From NCBI GenBank assembly GCA_045589435.1, contig JAZNPB010000140.1, positions 1,428 through 65,427 on the forward strand: DNA of 64,000 nt. Direction: 5' to 3'. Positions 6,010 to 17,526 of the stretch are shown piece by piece. The notes under the pieces are model-generated. The model was not told where the DNA came from. It was given only the letters and a program-made list of their open reading frames with translations, and did no database searches. This DNA is from Eubacteriales bacterium. Lineage in GTDB: Bacteria; Bacillota; Clostridia; Oscillospirales; CAG-272. The translations under genes and the position numbers were made by a program. The first letter of the stretch is position 1. Each line of letters starts with the position of its first letter.

Positions 6010-6048
6010 TGTTACTTCCTCCTTTCCTTGATATTTATTTACAAAAGT

Positions 6049-6077
6049 ATTCTAACACAATAGGAAGACTTTGTCAA
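6049..6077 (-). promoter_or_regulatory. sigma-70 type promoter of leader ORF/ABC operon
   Basis: Minus strand: TTGACA, 17 nt spacer, TAGAAT. Confidence 0.6.
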
Positions 6078-6881: not shown

Positions 6882-7198
6882 AACTCCTCCATAAAGCATG
6901 TCCATCAAGTTTAAGACCTTACATATATAATACCATAAATCCGCATCGAAAAAAATAGGTTCTGCAAAATTTAGCATATTTTTGTTGAAGTAGCACAAAA
7001 ACCTGACGTAGTTTATGTGCAATTTTCACAACTGCCTTGTGAGCTTTATAAGGAAACAAAAGTATCATGCCTATGACAATAAAAGAGATTTTTCAAAAAC
7101 AGCAATTCTGACATTTTCCTGCATTTCTCACATTTTTCCTTGTTTTTGACAATAATTATTTACAAACATCTTGACTTTCAGCAACTTCTATAAGGCAC

Positions 7199-8108: not shown

Positions 8109-9332
8109 ATGAAAAATGTAATCGTTGGACAGTCAGGCGGTCCTACATCAGTAATCAATTCCAGCCTTCTCGGAGTTTTCAAAACTGCAAAGGACAGAGG
8201 CGCAGATATCGTTTACGGCATGGTTCACGGTATAAAAGGCCTTCTCGATCGCGATATAGTTGATCTTTCTTCGCAGATCAAAACTGACCTTGATATGGAC
8301 CTTCTCAAGAGAACTCCCTCCTCGTTCCTCGGCTCGTGCCGTTATAAGCTCCCTGATATTAAGGGAAATGAAGAAACTTATGACAAGATCTTCGGTATTC
8401 TGAACGATCTTGAGATCTACGCCTTCTTCTACATTGGCGGTAACGACTCTATGGATACTATCAAAAAGCTTACCGACTACGGTAACATGATAAACAGTCC
8501 CATCAGATTCATCGGTGTTCCAAAAACAATCGACAATGACCTTGCCATCACAGATCACACCCCCGGTTTCGGCTCTGCGGCAAAATATATCGCAGCTACC
8601 ACAAAGGAAATAATTCGCGACGGTCTTGTTTACGACTATCCCGTAGTTTCCGTTATCGAAATAATGGGTAGAAACGCAGGTTGGCTCACAGCAGCTGCTG
8701 CTCTTTCAAAGGGCGAGGACTGCGAGGGCGTTGACCTAATTTATATGCCTGAAACAGTATTTGACGTTGATAAGTTTATAAACAAGGTTGGAGAGCTTCT
8801 TAAGGAAGAACGCTCTATCGTTATTGCAGTTTCCGAGGGTATCAAGGTTGCAGACGGAAGATACGTTTGCGAGCTTGCAGATCATATCGACTACGTTGAC
8901 GCATTCGGACACAAGCAGCTGGCAGGTACGGCAAGATATCTTACAGGCGAGATCTCAAAGAGATTCAAGGTTAAGACAAGAGCTATCGAGCTTTCATCTC
9001 TCCAAAGATGCGCGGCACACGTTACCAGCCGTATTGACATCACCGAGGCATTCAACGCAGGTGGCGCAGCAGTTAAGCTTGCTTTCGAGGGTAAGACCGG
9101 TCAGGTTATCACTCTCCAGAGAGTATCCGAGGATCCATATATGTGCATTACCGAGCCTGCTGACGTTCACTTCATCGCAAACGTTGAAAAGAAAGTTCCA
9201 AGAGAATGGATCAACGAGGACGGCACTTACGTAACTCCTGCTCTCGTTCACTACATAAGACCTCTCATTCAGGCAGAGATCGCGCCCCTTTGGGTTGACG
9301 GTCTTCCAAGACACCTGAAGCTTGAGAGATAA
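8109..9332 (+). CDS. 6-phosphofructokinase, PfkA family (phosphoryl donor ATP vs PPi unresolved)
   Basis: GQSGGPTSVIN, IGGNDSMDT, PKTIDNDL and MGRNAGWLTAA motifs. The GGNDS motif (not GGDGS) leaves the donor open. Confidence 0.9.
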   Translation: MKNVIVGQSGGPTSVINSSLLGVFKTAKDRGADIVYGMVHGIKGLLDRDIVDLSSQIKTDLDMDLLKRTPSSFLGSCRYKLPDIKGNEETYDKIFGILNDLEIYAFFYIGGNDSMDTIKKLTDYGNMINSPIRFIGVPKTIDNDLAITDHTPGFGSAAKYIAATTKEIIRDGLVYDYPVVSVIEIMGRNAGWLTAAAALSKGEDCEGVDLIYMPETVFDVDKFINKVGELLKEERSIVIAVSEGIKVADGRYVCELADHIDYVDAFGHKQLAGTARYLTGEISKRFKVKTRAIELSSLQRCAAHVTSRIDITEAFNAGGAAVKLAFEGKTGQVITLQRVSEDPYMCITEPADVHFIANVEKKVPREWINEDGTYVTPALVHYIRPLIQAEIAPLWVDGLPRHLKLER

Positions 9333-10761: not shown

Positions 10762-12153
10762 ATGAAACTAAAGAAAAATCAAATTTTAGAACTTGATATA
10801 ATTGATATAACGAATCTTGGCTTTGGCGTTGGAAAGATATCGGGGGAGGTCATCTTTATTTCCGACACAGTTCCTGGGGATAGAGTCCGCGCCAAGGTGA
10901 TAAAGGTTGCAAGCTCATATGCCATAGGTAAGGCGGAGGAGTTCATTTTCCTCTCTGACAAGCGCGACCATAGATGCGATAACAGACTCTGCAAGGCTTG
11001 TGCCTACAAGAACATATCCTATGCTCACGAGGCAGAGCTGAAAGCGGCGGCAGTTTGCCAGATCTTCAAAAAGGCAGGGCTTCCCGAGGTTGAGATCGGG
11101 AGCATAATCACATCACCAAAGACTTGCGGTTACAGAAACAAAGCGCAGTACCCCATCAGTCGTGACAAAAACGGGGATTATCAAATAGGATTCTTTGCGC
11201 CAAAGAGCCACCGCGTTACAGATGCTATCGATTGCCCTCTGGCACCAAAAATTTTCTCTGAAATCCTTGCTGAAGCACGGAAGTACTTCAAGGAAAACGA
11301 CCTTTCTGTATACGATGAAGAATCCGGATCGGGACTTCTGCGCCACATATATCTTCGCCGTGGTGAAGTGTCGGGAGAGGTGCTGCTCACCTTCGTTATT
11401 AACGGTGCTTCCTTGCCAAACGCCGACGATCTGGTTTCCCGAATGACCAAAAAATTCCCCCAGATCGTGGGGATCCTTATAAATGAGAATACAAAAAACA
11501 CCAACATAATTTTAGGTGAAAAATACACTGCTCTCTTTGGCAGAGATTATATATTCGACACCCTGGCAGGAGTGGAGCTGAAAATTACTGCTCCATCATT
11601 CTATCAAGTAAACCACGACTGCGCAGAGATACTCTATGCAAAAGCGCGCGAGCTAGCAGATCTCAAATCTGATGACGTTCTTCTCGATCTATATTGCGGC
11701 GCCGGATCTATCGGACTCTCAATGGCAAAAGACTGTAAAGAGGTTATAGGGATAGAAATTGTAGATAGCGCAGTTGAATGTGCAAAGTTCAATGCAGAAA
11801 ATAATGACATAAAAAACGCCTCTTTCTACACCGGAGATGCAAAGGATACAGAAAAGCTCCTTCATCCGGCAGAGGCAGCACGCGTAGAGAAGATTTTGCC
11901 CGACGTAGTTATATTTGATCCCCCGCGTGGTGGGTCAGACGAGGTGCTTCTCCATCACGTAGCTTCCCTCTCTCCAAGAAAAATCGTGTACATTTCATGC
12001 AATCCCGCCACCCTCGCAAGAGATATGGCAATCTTAAAAGAATTAGGCTACATTGGCGGCACGGTAACTCCAGTGGATATGTTCCCCGGAACAGGACATG
12101 TCGAGTCCGTCGTGTGTCTCACACGTCGGCTCGACGTCGATATGCGCCGTTGA
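10762..12153 (+). CDS. rlmD: 23S rRNA (uracil-C5)-methyltransferase, RumA/RlmD(RlmCD) family
   Basis: N-terminal TRAM domain, Cys cluster (CDNRLCKAC), SAM motif LDLYCGAGSIG, catalytic ISCNPATLARD. The last 6 codons are encoded by the 8-mer repeat array. Confidence 0.9.
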   Translation: MKLKKNQILELDIIDITNLGFGVGKISGEVIFISDTVPGDRVRAKVIKVASSYAIGKAEEFIFLSDKRDHRCDNRLCKACAYKNISYAHEAELKAAAVCQIFKKAGLPEVEIGSIITSPKTCGYRNKAQYPISRDKNGDYQIGFFAPKSHRVTDAIDCPLAPKIFSEILAEARKYFKENDLSVYDEESGSGLLRHIYLRRGEVSGEVLLTFVINGASLPNADDLVSRMTKKFPQIVGILINENTKNTNIILGEKYTALFGRDYIFDTLAGVELKITAPSFYQVNHDCAEILYAKARELADLKSDDVLLDLYCGAGSIGLSMAKDCKEVIGIEIVDSAVECAKFNAENNDIKNASFYTGDAKDTEKLLHPAEAARVEKILPDVVIFDPPRGGSDEVLLHHVASLSPRKIVYISCNPATLARDMAILKELGYIGGTVTPVDMFPGTGHVESVVCLTRRLDVDMRR

Positions 12154-12338
12154 TGCGTCGCTCGATATGTCTGCGACTCGATATGGCGCTAAAGCGCTCG
12201 ATATGCCCTGCGGGGCGAGGAGAAAAGGCGCAATCGACACTCGTTGCCAGAGGCAACATATCGAATTTCGAGCGAAGCGAGAAATATATCGAATGGTCGC
12301 AACGCGACCATATATCGAGTTGCGAAGCAACATATCGA
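12137..12338. repeat. mirror-symmetric array: 4 x TCGATATG, then 4 x (C)ATATCGA, each abutting a GC mini-hairpin
   Basis: Forward 8-mers at 12137, 12162, 12178 and 12198. Reverse copies at 12257, 12285, 12311 and 12331. Mini-hairpins at 12186-12197, 12205-12216, 12243-12257, 12295-12309 and 12319-12331. Confidence 0.8.
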
Positions 12339-12369
12339 CAAATGCTACAAAACAAAGGAGCAAGACAAA

Positions 12370-12720
12370 ATGACCGACAACAAGAACCAACTCCGAGAGG
12401 ACGCCATAGAATTTGCTATCCAAATATCCGACCTCTGTGATGAAATAAAAGGTTGCTCCGTTTATGTGAATCAGATTGTCCGTTCTTCATCGTCCATCGG
12501 AGCCAATATTCACGAAGCAAAATACGCACAGAGCAAAGCCGATTTTATAAATAAATTGGAAATCTCCTTAAAAGAGTCTTCGGAAACCGAATATTGGCTT
12601 GAGCTGATTTTTAGAAAAGGTAAAGTGACAGAAATAACCTACAAGGATTTACGCAACAAATGCGGTTCAATCAGGCGCAGACTTATTGCTTCCATCACCA
12701 CAGCCAAGGAAAACGGATAA
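12370..12720 (+). CDS. four-helix-bundle protein (23S rRNA intervening-sequence protein / Avd-like family)
   Basis: 116 aa from ATG 12370, after AAAGGAG. Family-typical ...IVRSSSSIGANIHEAKYAQSKADFINKLEISLKESSETEYWLELI. Confidence 0.75.
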   Translation: MTDNKNQLREDAIEFAIQISDLCDEIKGCSVYVNQIVRSSSSIGANIHEAKYAQSKADFINKLEISLKESSETEYWLELIFRKGKVTEITYKDLRNKCGSIRRRLIASITTAKENG

Positions 12721-12723
12721 GGA

Positions 12724-12793
12724 CAAATAATGAGTTCGAGCGAAACTCGAAACTTCAATTTACATCAGTTTGGTATAACATATCGAAAGGAGA
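12724..12793 (+). repeat. 70-nt conserved cassette leader, copy a (hairpin TTCGAG-CGAAA-CTCGAA, TGGTATAAC, CATATCGA, AAGGAGA)
   Basis: 67/70 identical to 13730-13799. Confidence 0.85.
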
Positions 12794-12802
12794 TTACCCA
12801 AA

Positions 12803-13489
12803 TTGACTTATGGAATTATAAAAAACAAAGACGGTTCGACCTATGTGTCACCGATATTTGCTTTGAAATATGCAGGTTGGAAATCAGAGGTGATTGTCTT
12901 TGATGAAACATTTGAAAAAATCAAAAAGATTGAAATGTGGAATTCTGGTTTTAGTGGAATCCACAGAATTGTATTTGTGCTTGAAAATGATTTTGACACA
13001 AACGGTGGAGAGTTTGCCGGATATGATTGGGTAATCAACGATAAAGCTCTTTTCAAGGCACTTCGGTCAAAGAAAGGTGCAAATATAGAGGATTTCCCTT
13101 TATTCAAAGAGTATTGCAAGGATATATGCGTGCCTGATCTCTTTGAGATAAAAGATGAGAAAGATATCGCTGCTCTCGAAGATGTTTCATTTGGATTTCA
13201 CGATTCCCTCATACAGGAGTATGAGGAAAAGGACGGCAGTATTGTAATACGCTTTGATACAACGTGGGATTGCTACATTACCGTAACCTTTGACGGAGTT
13301 GTCGAGGCTGATTTCAAAGAAAAAGTAGGTCAGATATTGGATTCGGAAATCAAGAAAACGGACGAAGGTTTTTCATTCACGGTATTAGACGGCTTTGCAG
13401 GTTGGATTGACGGCTGTGATTACGGGTCCGAGATTGGAGAGCCTTATATTAAGTGCAAAAGAATTTTTTGGCAAATTGAAATTGCCTAA
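12803..13489 (+). CDS. hypothetical soluble protein (228 aa), TTG start
   Basis: The SD of the conserved leader lies 9 nt upstream of the TTG. No family recognised. Confidence 0.5.
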   Translation: MTYGIIKNKDGSTYVSPIFALKYAGWKSEVIVFDETFEKIKKIEMWNSGFSGIHRIVFVLENDFDTNGGEFAGYDWVINDKALFKALRSKKGANIEDFPLFKEYCKDICVPDLFEIKDEKDIAALEDVSFGFHDSLIQEYEEKDGSIVIRFDTTWDCYITVTFDGVVEADFKEKVGQILDSEIKKTDEGFSFTVLDGFAGWIDGCDYGSEIGEPYIKCKRIFWQIEIA

Positions 13490-13523
13490 AATATACTTTT
13501 GAGAAGATTTACGATAAAAAGTG

Positions 13524-13610
13524 AGACTTTAAGGTATTACAACCCCCATTTTTCGACCGGTGTGAGACCTTTTGGAGTCCCCGCCCATGTCGAATCTGTC
13601 GTTTGTCTGA
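13524..13610 (+). repeat. decayed rumA 3'-end copy 1 (reads TLRYYNPHFSTGVRPFGVPAHVESVVCLTRKCAKNG*)
   Basis: It shares the HVESVVCLTR-coding core with resident rumA (12097-12125). About 80 percent identical to copy 2. Confidence 0.75.
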
Positions 13611-13729
13611 CGAGAAAATGCGCCAAAAACGGTTAAAAACAGGCAAAATCAAACCGTTTTTAACGTTTTTAAGATAATAATTCAAAAAACGGTGTTCAAA
13701 ATCAACCCCCAAAAAATTTTATGTTGGGG

Positions 13730-13799
13730 CAAATAATGATTTCGAGCTAAACTCGAAACTTCAATTTACATCTGTTTGGTATAACATATCGAAAGGAGA
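13730..13799 (+). repeat. 70-nt conserved cassette leader, copy b
   Basis: See 12724-12793. Here the SD serves an 11-codon ORF (MSKKSRKRTTK*, 13805-13840). Confidence 0.85.
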
Positions 13800-13860
13800 C
13801 CAAAATGTCTAAAAAATCACGCAAAAGAACGACGAAATAATAGACCAATCAATTCACGAT

Positions 13861-14367
13861 GTGTTATCAATGCAAAAGCAAACAATGAAAAAAGCTTTTC
13901 TTGATTATTTAGGAGCTACAATTATGTTTTTTGTGATGGCTCTCGTTGTATTTGTAGTTGGACTTTTGACAGAAGACGCTTCGCATTCAAAACGAATTGT
14001 TTTTGTCGCTACACCCATTATTCTTGGTTTTACCATGTTTTTCACTTTTCTTTTTATTCGACGATTTGTTATCTTTAAGGAAATCAACAAGATTACATCT
14101 TCAAGTGAACAGACTATCGAAATTACTTGCAAAAAGGTGGAATTTTTGACTCAACCTATATCCAAACATTCCGCCGTAATTATATGTATTGTATTAACAG
14201 ATGAAAATGGCAAAAAGTATTATGACATAGTAAACGGGATTTCTTATTGCGCAAAAAAGGCGACGCGAGCGGAGTTGTTAAACACAAAAATTACGCTTAA
14301 TTGCTATGTGAACACTAACTATGTGAGAACTCATAAAGTACATACAGAGGCTATAGGGGAAAATTAA
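13861..14367 (+). CDS. hypothetical membrane protein (2 TM)
   Basis: Start uncertain: GTG 13861, ATG 13870 or ATG 13885, none with a clear RBS. It may be the frameshifted continuation of the 11-codon ORF. Confidence 0.45.
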   Translation: MLSMQKQTMKKAFLDYLGATIMFFVMALVVFVVGLLTEDASHSKRIVFVATPIILGFTMFFTFLFIRRFVIFKEINKITSSSEQTIEITCKKVEFLTQPISKHSAVIICIVLTDENGKKYYDIVNGISYCAKKATRAELLNTKITLNCYVNTNYVRTHKVHTEAIGEN

Positions 14368-14452
14368 GACTTTAAGATATTACAACCCCCGTTTTTGACC
14401 GATTTTGAGGCCTTTTGGAGTCCCCTCCCACATTGAAAGTGTCGTTTATCTA
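14367..14452 (+). repeat. decayed rumA 3'-end copy 2 (TLRYYNPRF*PILRPFGVPSHIESVVYLSKE, internal stop)
   Basis: Aligns with copy 1 over 86 nt with one indel. Confidence 0.75.
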
Positions 14453-14477
14453 AGTAAAGAAAGCGAAAAACAGAAAA

Positions 14478-14954
14478 ATGAACTTCAAAAAAGCAAATCA
14501 AAGTGATACTGAGCATATCCTTTCCCTTTATCAAAATGCTAAAACAAGTGAGTTCTGCGTTTGGAACGATAGTTATCCTTCTATTGCGGAAATCCAGCAT
14601 GATTTAATCACAAATAATCTGTACGTTATGACCGATAAAAGCGAAATAATAGGAGCTATTTCTATTGTGCCAGAAAATGAAATGGACGGTTTCGATTGCT
14701 GGTCATATAAGGATGGCAAAGAAATTGCCAGAGTTGTAGTTGACAAGGCATACCAAGGTCATGGTCTGTCCTTTGAAATGGTGAAAAGCGTTGAGGCAAT
14801 TCTGCGGCAGAACGGCCGTAAGGCTATTCATTTATCTGTGGTAAAATCCAACCTGCCCGCCTATAAAACGTATATAAAAGCGGGATTTGCTGTGGTCGGA
14901 GAAGCGGATATGTACGGTAATAGTTACTACCTTATGGAGAAAGCAATCAATTAA
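14478..14954 (+). CDS. GNAT family N-acetyltransferase
   Basis: VVDKAYQGHGLSFEMV acetyl-CoA motif. 158 aa. Confidence 0.8.
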   Translation: MNFKKANQSDTEHILSLYQNAKTSEFCVWNDSYPSIAEIQHDLITNNLYVMTDKSEIIGAISIVPENEMDGFDCWSYKDGKEIARVVVDKAYQGHGLSFEMVKSVEAILRQNGRKAIHLSVVKSNLPAYKTYIKAGFAVVGEADMYGNSYYLMEKAIN

Positions 14955-15069
14955 GCTTTCATACCTAAATAAATCACAAACAAGCGAGCTCGTGACCCAC
15001 ATTTAGAACAATAACTAAGTTCGTCGTAGAGAAAAAACGAGCCCTGTTATTACAGTTAATAAAAAGAAC

Positions 15070-15516
15070 ATGAGAAAAACAGTAAAAAAAGAGGATGCTA
15101 CAATCGATTTTTCAAAAAAATATTCGAAGAAAAGGAAAACGCCAAAGACTGTCAAGCAAGAGAACGACATAGTTGTTGGAAAAATAATCTGCTGGGGATT
15201 TATTATTGCAGTACCTTTGATTCTACTTGCGTTTTTGATAGTTTCAAAAGCGAACGAATCTCCCGTATTTTCAAATTACGCTACGTTATCGATATTTATC
15301 CCGTGCATTGCTTTTGGCACGTATAATCTTTTAGGCTTGATTTTCAAGTGGAATCATGCGAGAGCTTGCGCGCAGACCTTCCTTCACAAGAGAATGATGG
15401 TCGACGTAAGGGATAAAATGTCCGATGAAGAAAAAAGAGAGACCTTGTTTTTAGTGATCGCCCTTTACGCTATCGGATTTTTGGGTACGGCATTCCAATT
15501 TATAGATATTTTATGA
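15070..15516 (+). CDS. hypothetical membrane protein
   Basis: 148 aa with a basic N-terminus and 3-4 hydrophobic segments. Confidence 0.45.
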   Translation: MRKTVKKEDATIDFSKKYSKKRKTPKTVKQENDIVVGKIICWGFIIAVPLILLAFLIVSKANESPVFSNYATLSIFIPCIAFGTYNLLGLIFKWNHARACAQTFLHKRMMVDVRDKMSDEEKRETLFLVIALYAIGFLGTAFQFIDIL

Positions 15517-15564
15517 CGTAAAAAGCGATCTATTAAAGTTACCGTTTTATAGAAAAGAGGATTA

Positions 15565-16158
15565 ATGAAAAACACAAATAAATCAAAAAATGCAGCTATA
15601 ATATTACTCATAGGCATCGGGGCGCTGCTGATCACGCTGGGAGCTTTTGCAAACCAAGGAAAGCTACCGCTGATATTGTGCGGTGCAGGATTTGTTGCCT
15701 TTGCACTGCTAATACTTTCAGGCGCTCTTGACGGCAAAAAAGACGATGAGGGTGATCACGCCTACACTATTACGAGTGTTACAAACGTTGACCGAATGGA
15801 GGGGCGAGAATTTGAGTATTTCTGTGCAGAGCTGCTGGAGCGATGCGGCTTTGAGGAGGTGGAAGTAACTCGCGGATCGGGAGATCAGGGCGTAGATATT
15901 CTCGCAAGAAAAGAGGATATAAAATACGCAATACAATGTAAAAACTACTCTCATCCTCTCGGAAACTCCCCCGTGCAGGAGGTCTACGCCGGCAAGACTT
16001 TCTATAAATGCCACGTAGGTGTGGTGATGACGAATTCCACCTTCACAAAAGGGGCGCGTCAGCTTGCAGACTCTGTAGGTATCATCCTGTGGGATAAAAG
16101 CAGGCTCGACAAAATGATGATCCGTACCGGAATGCAAGAATTTGTCAAAAAACAATAA
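15565..16158 (+). CDS. membrane-anchored Mrr-like restriction endonuclease domain protein
   Basis: Two N-terminal TM segments, then a PD-(D/E)xK Mrr_cat-type core (GSGDQGVDILA...IQCK...VQEV). Confidence 0.7.
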   Translation: MKNTNKSKNAAIILLIGIGALLITLGAFANQGKLPLILCGAGFVAFALLILSGALDGKKDDEGDHAYTITSVTNVDRMEGREFEYFCAELLERCGFEEVEVTRGSGDQGVDILARKEDIKYAIQCKNYSHPLGNSPVQEVYAGKTFYKCHVGVVMTNSTFTKGARQLADSVGIILWDKSRLDKMMIRTGMQEFVKKQ

Positions 16159-16219
16159 AATTGAAAATAATTATTTACATATTAAAATAAAAAAACACAA
16201 TAACAAAGGAGAATTAGTT

Positions 16220-16651
16220 ATGAGTATTTTCAACAAAACAAAAAAAGAAGCAAACGGTAATACCAAGGTTTGGGTTAACAAGAAGTCCAGAGTTCGCGTT
16301 GATAACGACCTTCGCTGGAACAAAATGTGGGATCTCTGGTGCGAGGGTAAAGTACCATCACCTTACGCTGATCTCATGTCTTACCAGAGCGACGTACATA
16401 CCATCGGCCATGCTAAATTCTTCGAGAAGATCGCTGCCGGCGACATGACAAAGACCCTCGCCTATATTTCAAAGATGCTCCCTGCTTCTATCAAGCTTCC
16501 CCTCCATGAGGCTTATCACGCATACAAGGTAAACGGCCCTGATGCAGAGGAAAACGGCGCATTCTTCGACCACTGCGACGAAGCTTTGTTTGCAAACGAA
16601 AAGGCTATTGACGATTTCCTTATGGAGTTTGCAAAGAACATTAAGATCTGA
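16220..16651 (+). CDS. hypothetical protein (143 aa)
   Basis: Start at ATG 16220 after AAAGGAGA. No family recognised with confidence. Confidence 0.5.
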   Translation: MSIFNKTKKEANGNTKVWVNKKSRVRVDNDLRWNKMWDLWCEGKVPSPYADLMSYQSDVHTIGHAKFFEKIAAGDMTKTLAYISKMLPASIKLPLHEAYHAYKVNGPDAEENGAFFDHCDEALFANEKAIDDFLMEFAKNIKI

Positions 16652-16653
16652 TA

Positions 16654-17526
16654 ATGCTATATCAGAAAATAGTAAAAAAAGAGCCCCTCCTCAAGGGCTG
16701 GTCAGGTGACAAAAAGTACAAAGTGACCACTGACGAGGGGCAGACTTTTCTATTGCGAATTTCTCCTAAAGAGCGGTTTGAAAACAGAAAAAAACTCTAT
16801 GAAATGCAAAAAGCCGTGGGGGAGCTTGAGGTGCCAATGTGCCACGCTGTGGAGTTTGGCTTATGCGATGAGGGGGTATACTCTCTTTTGGAATGGATCG
16901 ACGGCGATGATGCAGAAACGGTTATCCCCACCTTGCCTCTCTCCAAGCAATATGAGCTGGGACTTCGGGCGGGAGAGATCGTTCGCAAGATACACTCCAT
17001 CCCTGCGCCTGACGGAATACCCGATTGGGGCGAAAAAATGGGCAAGAAGATCGACGCAAAGATAAAGCTTTACGAGGAATGCCCGCTAAAACTCGAGGGT
17101 GGCGAATATATGCTGGATTACATAGCAAAAAACCGCCATCTGATCGTCGGACGTCCCCAATGCTTCCAGCACGGAGATTATCACATCGGAAACATGATGA
17201 TCAAGGATGGAGAACTGTATATTATCGACTTTGATCGATACGATTTCGGCGATCCATGGGAGGAATTTAACAGAGTTTGGTCGGCAGAGGCATCTGCTGA
17301 ATTTGCCAGAGGAACCATTGACGGCTATTTTGACGGTGAGGCTATTCCCGAAGAATTCTGGAGGCTGATACTGCTTTATATCTGCCGCAATATGCTCTCA
17401 TCTATTCCATGGGCAATACCGTTTGGAGATAAACAGGTGGAAGTAATGAGAAAGCAAGCAAAAAACATCCTCACCTGGTATAATAACATGACAACCGTGG
17501 TACCAAGCTGGTACAGAAAGGAATAA
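16654..17526 (+). CDS. aminoglycoside/small-molecule phosphotransferase (APH) family kinase
   Basis: Catalytic loop HGDYHIGNMM and IDFDRYDFGDPWEEF. Confidence 0.8.
   Translation: MLYQKIVKKEPLLKGWSGDKKYKVTTDEGQTFLLRISPKERFENRKKLYEMQKAVGELEVPMCHAVEFGLCDEGVYSLLEWIDGDDAETVIPTLPLSKQYELGLRAGEIVRKIHSIPAPDGIPDWGEKMGKKIDAKIKLYEECPLKLEGGEYMLDYIAKNRHLIVGRPQCFQHGDYHIGNMMIKDGELYIIDFDRYDFGDPWEEFNRVWSAEASAEFARGTIDGYFDGEAIPEEFWRLILLYICRNMLSSIPWAIPFGDKQVEVMRKQAKNILTWYNNMTTVVPSWYRKE

Follow-up and report, generated by a model that had tools for sequence, protein, structure and literature searches.

Rows of small genes gathered behind one fixed chromosomal site occur in several described systems, and we compare with them a locus in a 64,000-nt stretch of DNA from a Eubacteriales bacterium (positions 1,428 to 65,427 of contig JAZNPB010000140.1, GCA_045589435.1; hereafter the window), in which unrelated small genes follow the 3′ end of the methyltransferase gene rumA. 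For ICESt1/ICESt3, integrative elements and cis-mobilizable elements (CIMEs) have reportedly accreted at fda, and tycheposons are said to form arrays at tRNA genes in Prochlorococcus. The rAID-1 clusters of Bacteroidales, which are gut bacteria, are long co-directional arrays of small genes (bioRxiv 10.1101/471110; Ross et al. 2019) that begin, at the 5′ end, with an XerD-like tyrosine recombinase of >44% identity to BF9343_RS08045 and hold mostly immunity or orphan immunity genes (bioRxiv 10.1101/471110). The 3′ part of rumA itself is a target of streptococcal and clostridial integrative and conjugative elements (ICEs), which are conjugative, measure 50-90 kb and carry a single large serine integrase (PMC4701971, PMC5633684); their right attachment site, attR, falls within the integrase gene, and the reading frame of the RumA C-terminus is changed upon integration (PMC4701971). 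The rumA locus has the layout of a chromosomal integron or rAID-1 cluster and the logic of attachment-site accretion, but it fails the defining tests of each class because it has neither an intI nor an XerD-like gene, shows no attC fold and includes no integrase-bearing member.

On balance, we take positions 12097-14471 of the window for the proximal stretch of an array of gene cassettes that has its anchor at the rumA 3′ end. The final ~30 nt of rumA (12097-12125) are found again twice downstream (13586-13620 and 14429-14461), in the same orientation, within two ~115-nt repeats that we call R87. Between rumA and the second R87, the array holds one four-helix-bundle (4HB) module, which consists of a hairpin (hairpin 0), a k-mer array (K-array), a PF05635 gene and a further repeat, R70, together with one DUF4085 cassette and one membrane-protein cassette. 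The features, all on the plus strand, are as follows.

10762..12153, +, rumA (rlmCD-type 23S rRNA (uracil-5)-methyltransferase), 463 aa, intact; Pfam TRAM and tRNA_U5-meth_tr
12097..12125, +, resident core copy CATGTCGAGTCCGTCGTGTGTCTCACACG, encoding HVESVVCLTR; matched by a unit B hidden Markov model built from R87 copies only and, in blastn, by R87 copy 1
12100..12135, +, hairpin 0, a palindrome at the left end of the 4HB module; fold -26.5 kcal/mol
12137..12339, +, K-array, 4 copies of TCGATATG, then 4 copies of the reverse complement (C/T)ATATCGA
12370..12720, +, 4HB gene (PF05635, "23S rRNA-intervening sequence protein"), 116 aa; Pfam E=1.1e-21
12711..12810, +, R70 copy 1; nhmmer E=1.7e-23; present in >20 related loci
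12803..13489, +, cargo 1, DUF4085 protein (Pfam), 228 aa, TTG start, G+C 38%
13489..13505, +, junction-unit remnant AAATATACTTTTGAG, directly 3′ of cargo 1; alignment with locus L005
13511..13633, +, R87 copy 1; nhmmer E=2.1e-34; unit B E=1.7e-16; 35-copy alignment; contains unit A (~13520-13562), unit B (13563-13618) and the rumA-terminus mimic CATGTCGAATCTGTCGTTTGTCTGACGAGAAAAT (13586-13619)
13634..13720, +, spacer with two hairpins, seen in the sequence
13721..13805, +, R70 copy 2; nhmmer E=7.5e-23
13861..14367, +, cargo 2, predicted membrane protein from the open reading frame (ORF) list, 168 aa (GTG) or 165 aa (ATG 13870), G+C 33%
14355..14471, +, R87 copy 2; nhmmer E=1.4e-32; unit B E=4.6e-13; translation; contains unit B (14405-14461) and the decayed terminus mimic CACATTGAAAGTGTCGTTTATCTAAGTAAAGAAAG (14429-14463)

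The window RumA ends in ...GTGHVESVVCLTRRLDVDMRR and a stop codon. Colinearity with L001 and L002, the two genomes nearest to this one (comparison loci carry L numbers throughout), ends at 12125, and the last 9 rumA codons and the stop, from 12124 onward, are contributed by the inserted module. The resident core that precedes this junction is the anchor site of the array. Its similarity to the downstream copies extends over few positions (in the window, 22/26 nt with E=0.006; 10/12 aa), and we count it as systematic because profiles built from R87 match rumA termini across relatives. An nhmmer profile from six R87 copies matches the resident rumA 3′ end in 12 relatives. The 58-nt unit B profile, built from 35 R87 copies and containing no rumA sequence, matches the rumA terminus of the window (E=5.6e-5) and that of 9/9 relatives scanned (E 6e-7 to 1.5e-4). 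Besides the resident core and the two copies, no R87 or core copy was found elsewhere in the 64-kb window, and no significant unit B match marks a decayed copy deeper in it (14.5-23 kb). In all 8 multi-copy loci the core copies are co-oriented, with 0 on the reverse strand, which we count in favor of accretion at one site; additional core copies are confined to the clade that shares araC-rumA synteny.

The anatomy of R87 can be read directly from the copies. Each consists of two ~45-nt units in tandem, both opening with ATACCTTTTGG; unit A resembles unit B minus 12-14 nt of the core, and unit B continues into CAC GTC GAA AGT GTC GTT TGT CTG ACG AGA AAA TAA, that is, HVESVVCLTRK and a stop. Unit B thus includes an entire rumA terminus; L015, L016, L082 and L108 have resident termini of this type. 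To its left, R87 is unrelated to rumA and is conserved over 60-70 nt in 35 copies whose cargo is unrelated, and cargo ORFs terminate exactly where these 35 copies begin. Because a conserved non-rumA part joins a complete rumA terminus, R87 appears attR-like in layout, with the right end of an element followed by the displaced terminus of the target. In many cassettes the TRK-stop tail has been reshaped to GAGAAAGGAG, the ribosome-binding site (RBS) of the next ORF.

These results bear out most of what a first-pass annotation, made from the window alone, had described. The two further copies of the rumA terminus that it reported are real and lie on the same strand, and its estimate of about 80% identity between them agrees with the 79% over 115 nt (E=7e-21) that we obtained for the two R87 copies. 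Its translations are exact, with the frames starting at 13526 and 14369 rather than at 13524 and 14367, and the in-frame stop it saw in copy 2 is present at 14396-14398, upstream of the decayed mimic CACATTGAAAGTGTCGTTTATCTAAGTAAAGAAAG. Of the origins it suggested for the copies, another rumA allele is borne out, their right part being the full HVESVVCLTRK terminus, and the similarity between copies and rumA 3′ ends is significant with the R87-built profiles. The 8-mer array and the 70-nt repeat that it listed both exist, the repeat pair (12721-12793 versus 13727-13799) being 94.5% identical. Of the segments it delimited, the sizes are right (~1.5 and ~0.85 kb), but the first is a composite of the 4HB/k-mer module and the DUF4085 cassette.

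R70 copy 1 begins at the stop codon of the 4HB gene, holds the hairpin TTCGAGCGAAACTCGAA and ends in ...GGTATAACATATCGAAAGGAG, the RBS of the next ORF. A sigma-70 promoter scan gave no good match in R70, and its hairpin is merely terminator-like. After the same DUF4085 ORF, L005 has a complete short junction unit in the place of the remnant AAATATACTTTTGAG. The spacer at 13634..13720 stands where other units have the K-array and 4HB gene; the arrangement of core, spacer and R70 recurs in L137 (71.6% nt identity) and in L084, L094 and L108. An 11-codon ORF (MSKKSRKRTTK and a stop, 13806-13841), 8 nt past the R70 RBS and upstream of the 168-aa ORF, may be a leader peptide or a remnant of a former cargo start. 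Cargo 2 has no Pfam match. The cassettes have a G+C content of 33-41%, versus 45-47% for rumA, araC and pfk. An Rfam scan of 11800-15200 at E<=5 returned just three chance-level matches and no rRNA match; none of R87, R70 and the K-array belongs to a known RNA family.

To compare relatives, we scanned for RumA with one genome per species and obtained 80 loci, the closest of which come from uncultured Eubacteriales, Clostridia and "Ruminococcus" metagenome-assembled genomes (MAGs) of ruminant and human guts, with RumA identity up to 82%. R70 and/or R87 stand behind rumA in 12/80 loci, with other cargo: DUF2310 (L001), a membrane protein (L012), a restriction-modification (R-M) system with a C5-methylase (L007), GIY-YIG (L014), HNH (L008) and SF0329 (L004). 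A scan of metagenomes for the R87 pattern returned 32 contigs, with ~27 true arrays of alternating ORFs and R87; those that abut rumA directly include L097 (RumA 87% identical), L085, L102, L109 and L082. Arrays of this form behind rumA come from 12 genome loci, ~27 metagenome contigs and 13 further contigs. The cargo is diverse (25 protein families in 34 cassettes), most of it has no Pfam match, and the ORFs show no relationship to one another or to rumA. Where Pfam families were matched, they were DUF4085, DUF2310, DUF4304, SF0329, GIY-YIG, HNH, GNAT, a metallo-beta-lactamase fold, peptidase S51 and an R-M system.

The boundaries of the variable region are sharp, and its cargo is both exchanged and permuted between relatives. 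In L001, whose PFK is 97% identical at the amino acid level and whose RumA is 82% identical, colinearity with the window stops at 12125, where the core ends, and is restored at 14361, where the last R87 starts; between these points the two loci share R70 and R87 only. Colinearity with L002 also stops at 12125, and there the GNAT and membrane-protein cassettes appear in swapped order, the homologue of cargo 2 (61% identical) being located after GNAT. The DUF4085 protein of L005 is 90% identical to that of the window, versus 67% for RumA and 64% for AraC. A common 161-aa cassette, ~99% nt identical in L102 and L090, starts exactly at ...TGTCT|GACGAGAGAGG after two different cores. A 99-aa cassette adjoins the rumA core in L097 and R70 in L107, and a 113-aa cassette adjoins rumA in L085 and an R87 in L002. 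Elsewhere, the DUF4085 cassette and the 4HB/K-array module occur separately and in the other order.

The same modules occur behind a very divergent rumA. In L137/L138, the RumA-family gene is 30% identical to that of the window and the flanks show no similarity. Behind it, in opposite order, lie R70-DUF4085 (81.5% nt identical; DUF4085 79% aa in L137) and K-array-4HB (75.8% nt identical; 4HB 96% aa). The host's own terminus, MFPQTKHVESVVCLTRK and a stop, is present in a second copy before the imported modules. From these comparisons, this would be the most telling case of horizontal spread to the same target. We note that in this region (8718-8990) the duplicated terminus lies ~150 nt downstream and includes the host-specific FPQTK codons and that the insert between the two termini has no ORF.

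Among described systems, integrons and clusters of attC sites lacking integron-integrases (CALINs) are alike in having co-oriented, mostly single-ORF cassettes, each closed by a conserved repeat (~110 nt) of recombination type, and an array that starts at one fixed site and holds mostly small ORFans that vary between relatives. The R87 repeats are homogeneous within and between arrays, as Vibrio cholerae repeats (VCRs) are. Unlike an integron, the rumA array has no intI near it, although intI is not required for a CALIN; it is anchored on the coding 3′ end of a housekeeping gene and not on attI; and R87 consists of two direct units and a mimic of the target end, without the imperfect palindrome (R''-L''...L'-R') of attC. 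RNAalifold found no consensus structure on either strand in 31 aligned R87 copies, and single R87 sequences gave fold z-scores of -1.1 to +1.8. The candidate that R87 is an attC-type site was rejected, since it has no imperfect palindrome fold on either strand. The hosts of rumA arrays are Clostridia, and we know of no integrons reported in Firmicutes by complete-genome surveys.

The rAID-1 clusters share with the rumA arrays their gut hosts, co-directional small accessory genes, repetitive intergenic sequences, a G+C content below that of the flanks and evidence of horizontal acquisition. Here, however, the 5′ gene is rumA, with no recombinase nearby, and R87 contains the terminus of the target gene. 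The cargo, most of it without a Pfam match, could not be placed in immunity families. CIME and tycheposon accretions resemble the rumA array in their tandem elements separated by direct copies of the target 3′ end, in members without integrase that are served in trans and in a replacement terminus that preserves the gene. They differ in that the rumA units are 0.5-1.5 kb long with one ORF, that no integrase-bearing member was seen in >50 loci and that R87 varies far less across unrelated cargo than is usual for decayed attachment sites. The rumA ICEs share the target, the 3′ part of rumA, but their size, conjugation, attR within the integrase and change of frame are not seen here. In pdif/Xer modules, the sites alternate in inverted orientation, whereas the core copies here are all direct.

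We therefore lean towards an account in which mini-elements mobilized in trans have accreted on the rumA 3′ end by site-specific recombination. Small recombinase-less elements would integrate repeatedly at a ~30-40-bp site coincident with the conserved last codons of RumA (HVE-S/T-V-V-C-L...). A circular element would carry R87 as an attP-like site, and crossover inside the rumA terminus would supply rumA with a new in-frame tail and displace the old terminus downstream of the new element. R87 would then be the right end of the element and the replacement tail its left end, with the TRK-stop codons often turned into the RBS of the cargo, and repeated events would yield a row of co-oriented termini. 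The recombinase would act in trans; our guess is that a tyrosine recombinase is most likely, with the ATACCTTTTGG repeats as arm-type sites. Cargo could be expressed via read-through from rumA. The data show the anatomy of the repeats, cargo that varies and is permuted between relatives, sharp boundaries, the presence of the modules behind a very divergent rumA and the lack of recombinases nearby; circles, the enzyme, the precise point of crossover, excision, the succession of integrations and expression are inferred.

The successive site-specific integrations proposed in the first-pass annotation are supported to the extent that repeat anatomy and comparison of relatives argue for them. Its description of tiny units without a recombinase applies to every locus examined. 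A search of the rumA downstream region in relatives, as it suggested, revealed alternative cassettes, and the copies are accompanied by different cargo at the same place rather than by a fixed set. Its two parallels hold in part: the target is that of the streptococcal ICEs, but a serine integrase gene containing attR is absent, and the layout is integron-like, but the site, without an attC-type fold, is not.

Several observations weigh against accretion by site-specific recombination. Pfam scans of window ORFs from 6.2-22.2 kb and of array neighbors in relatives, including Pfam tables for L113-L139, found no recombinase gene up to ~10 kb from the array, either in the window or in any of >15 long related loci. 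No autonomous "master" element carrying R87 was found, and neither was a recombinase, a circle or direct evidence of excision. Exact-protein look-up of RumA, AraC, PFK, GNAT and DUF4085 returned no conspecific contig and thus no conspecific empty site. The boundaries do not pin the crossover to one point: they lie at the right edge of the core in L102/L090 and near the left of the unit for the 113-aa cassette in L085/L002. Core variants are mosaic, as homologous recombination would also give. R70-led cassettes sit downstream of the 4HB gene and not beside a core, so the order came about at least partly in a different way. Finally, the comparison loci are mostly MAG or metagenome contigs, in which repeats are prone to mis-assembly, and many contigs break in or near arrays.

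Assemblies break a few hundred nt past rumA or inside arrays in L003, L017, L018, L019, L105 and many JAEIGA01 contigs; such breaks are expected if junction repeats or strain-level variation in cassettes confuse assemblers. The cassette-array pattern has nevertheless turned up in >50 contigs, which come from independent projects.

An AraC-family regulator gene and rumA lie 5′ of the array in the window and in relatives. Minus-strand ORFs beside the arrays of L091, L100 and L116, inspected by eye only, include none that is recombinase-like; that of L091 resembles a membrane protein, and those of L100 and L116 are apparently spurious. Pattern scans of viral contigs, phage records and plasmid records for R87 and R70 were negative, and the metagenome scan for R87 returned arrays only; we count the absence of R87 from viral, phage and plasmid records in favor of accretion by site-specific recombination.

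The alternative we take most seriously, although we consider it unlikely, is that there is no dedicated recombinase and that R87, R70 and the rumA terminus serve as short homology arms for RecA-type gain, loss and shuffling of cassettes, including Campbell-type single crossovers of DNA, circular or incoming, with a mimic of the rumA terminus, and with the modules kept as expression signals (RBS, processing sites). The lack of a recombinase near any array examined, the mosaic core variants, breakpoints that do not fall at a single nucleotide and the second use of the post-core tail as an RBS are all consistent with it, and a Campbell-type crossover would likewise duplicate the terminus. However, uninterrupted identity is short (within the 22/26 match in the window; runs of ~16 and 10 nt in L137) and below the usual need of RecA, and arrays occur at the same gene in hosts without other flank homology. 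Homology arms alone do not explain the 60-70 nt non-rumA part of R87 that is conserved in 35 cassettes with unrelated cargo, and the L102/L090 cassette travels without any upstream R87.

A second alternative concerns the 4HB module. The 5′ arm of hairpin 0 is the rumA terminus, and the 3′ arm follows directly after it. Across 14 distinct sequences, 87.8% of cells are paired and 8 pairs show compensatory changes; 0/500 shuffles reach this score, and slid controls are 22-48% paired. The hairpin covaries with synonymous variants of the rumA terminus. A symmetric attB-like site for a serine recombinase was considered for hairpin 0 and rejected, as the arms covary at synonymous positions and there is no single consensus.

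In the K-array, TCGATATG starts at 12137, 12162, 12178 and 12198 and (C/T)ATATCGA at 12257, 12285, 12311 and 12331; TCGATATG occurs nowhere else in the window. Almost every spacer holds a small G+C-rich hairpin (RNA fold z=-3.6), and in 14 arrays, folds of <=-3 kcal/mol are reached by 69% of spacers and by 24% of shuffles. Comparison of the K-array with that of L113 reveals compensatory changes. There are at least 5 families of k-mers (7-9-mers), and within each the direct and inverted halves match. Spacers of the inverted half (window 12279-12299; L010, L005, L021, L059, L040, L062, L078) carry (C)GAGCGAAGCGAG-like motifs, with a short GC stem, a GAA loop and flanking G/A mismatches, which look like a specific protein-binding RNA motif. 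In L132, a run of N (7006-7105), masked or unresolved, lies inside the K-array.

The 4HB protein passes the PF05635 cut-off (77.5 bits versus 33.8). It has 4101 homologues, with PF05635 in every one among the matches listed. In L113-L122 it is 100% identical at the amino acid level and 91% at the nucleotide level, versus 65-69% for RumA and 44% for AraC. The protein is under strong purifying selection, the differences comprising 0 nonsynonymous versus ~30 synonymous changes.

The module lies directly behind rumA in distant lineages without R87 cassettes (L030, L032, L040, L059, L062, L078), and in L040 it forms a tandem repeat with cargo. It also occurs behind a peptidase M13 gene, where the hairpin keeps a rumA-like 5′ arm and strains differ in having from one to three K-arrays in tandem. 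Another place is behind a pectate lyase gene, at which identical flanks enclose either the module or a DUF4234 gene. Outside the window, coordinates of the 4HB module include the following.

L129, 9700-10351
L130, 2310-3510
L133, 3971-4835, minus strand
L040, 1760-5522
L123, 9750-10600

The 23S rRNA intervening sequences encode S23p/four-helix-bundle proteins in Coxiella and Leptospira (PMC4990558). They are reportedly alike in placing a PF05635 ORF in a small, structured, apparently selfish module with flanking complementary sequences. In contrast, the 4HB module stands behind protein genes (rumA, peptidase M13, pectate lyase) and not in the 23S rRNA gene (helix 25 or 45), and it has a direct-then-inverted k-mer array, spacer hairpins, a hairpin on the end of the upstream gene and no Rfam match. 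The module might serve as a structure for RNA processing or regulation, as an array to which protein binds or as a structure used in recombination.

The module could itself be the mobile agent, a selfish element that inserts at gene 3′ ends via structured DNA or RNA, with the R87 cassettes as by-products or hitch-hikers. Its places directly after rumA without R87 cassettes and behind the peptidase M13 and pectate lyase genes, with DUF4234 alternation at the latter, favor this idea, as do its own mimic of the rumA terminus, which also at sites other than rumA forms the 5′ arm of a covarying hairpin, and the strong purifying selection on its protein. We regard it as rather improbable: catalytic activity of PF05635 proteins is not known, nor is a mechanism for such mobility, and many cassettes and whole arrays (L097, L109, L085, L090) have no module, R87 and the 4HB module occurring independently.

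Very unlikely, in our judgment, is a third alternative, that the repeats are scars of successive large rumA-targeting elements (ICEs, integrative and mobilizable elements or prophages, with a large serine integrase) after internal deletions. It draws on rumA as a documented hotspot for serine-integrase ICEs (PMC4701971; PMC5633684) and on a large serine recombinase gene in this genome, which lies near one edge of the window beside a tRNA gene.

3-1292, +, large serine recombinase gene (Recombinase and Zn-ribbon domains), cut off by the window edge
1516-1590, -, tRNA-Glu(CTC) gene; the recombinase gene ends 220 nt away

This recombinase gene is 9.5 kb upstream of rumA, with housekeeping genes between, and the C-terminus of its product is unrelated to RumA; it probably marks one end of an integrated element that has no relation to the rumA array. 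It is the only serine recombinase gene in the window, and its sequence bears no relation to the junction. We considered it as the agent of cassette integration and set it aside, as it belongs to another element beside tRNA-Glu. In the described rumA ICEs, the integrase gene contains attR and repeats measure 2-21 bp (PMC4701971), whereas no integrase ORF or remnant precedes R87 in any of 35 copies and ORFs stop exactly at the R87 start. Domain scans of the units (0.5-3.5 kb) found no relaxase or type IV secretion system domains, so that conjugation and mobilization genes are lacking. Serine integrases normally do not re-use attL, so tandem arrays would not be expected, and random deletion would not trim 35 junctions identically.

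A local duplication of the rumA 3′ end in tandem and later drift, with no mobility and vertical similarity, would account for co-oriented copies adjacent to their source gene, but we give it next to no chance, as it is already contradicted by the relatives, in which units are more identical than flanking genes and also occur behind a 30%-identical RumA-family gene, and by cargo ORFs unrelated to each other and to rumA and two copies that are both closer to a different rumA allele than to the resident one.

Past the last R87, the region colinear with L001 contains a further small gene.

14478..14954, +, GNAT acetyltransferase (Pfam), G+C 39%

This gene is probably an older cassette. In L002, a core copy follows the GNAT homologue (6041-6072, E=0.007); in the window, the unit B profile found no significant core copy after GNAT. 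The GNAT, Mrr-like endonuclease and APH-family kinase genes (14478-17526) are syntenic in L001, and L002 has other small genes interspersed among them; the array may formerly have reached several kb further. Elsewhere in the window, a single 6671-aa ORF (22205-42220, minus strand), presumably encoding a giant surface protein, has internal repeats with periods of 15, 21, 69 and ~276 nt and dominates the repeat analysis of the window.

We found no description of the rumA cassette array or of PF05635 mobility in the literature. A broader idea, which we hold tentatively and think possible rather than probable, is that gut Clostridia have a distinct gene-capture platform, in which cassettes and the 4HB/k-mer module would home to the rumA end via a terminus mimic, the mimic would pair as a hairpin, the array would be expressed and horizontally exchanged, and the site and possibly the enzyme would be of an undescribed kind. 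The array would define a cassette-exchange hotspot in abundant, poorly studied Clostridia of the gut and rumen, and its simple sequence signature makes such arrays findable in metagenomes. It also poses a mechanistic question, namely which enzyme acts on a site of ~50 nt in which a conserved left half is joined to a mimic of the rumA terminus. The PF05635 module, with its covarying hairpin and k-mer array, is a second unexplained element and may bear on the spread of "23S rRNA intervening sequence" genes, which to our knowledge has never been explained. The arrays pool dozens of low-G+C ORFan genes moving between species whose housekeeping genes are 30-80% identical and thereby offer a tractable view of how accessory genes spread in the gut.

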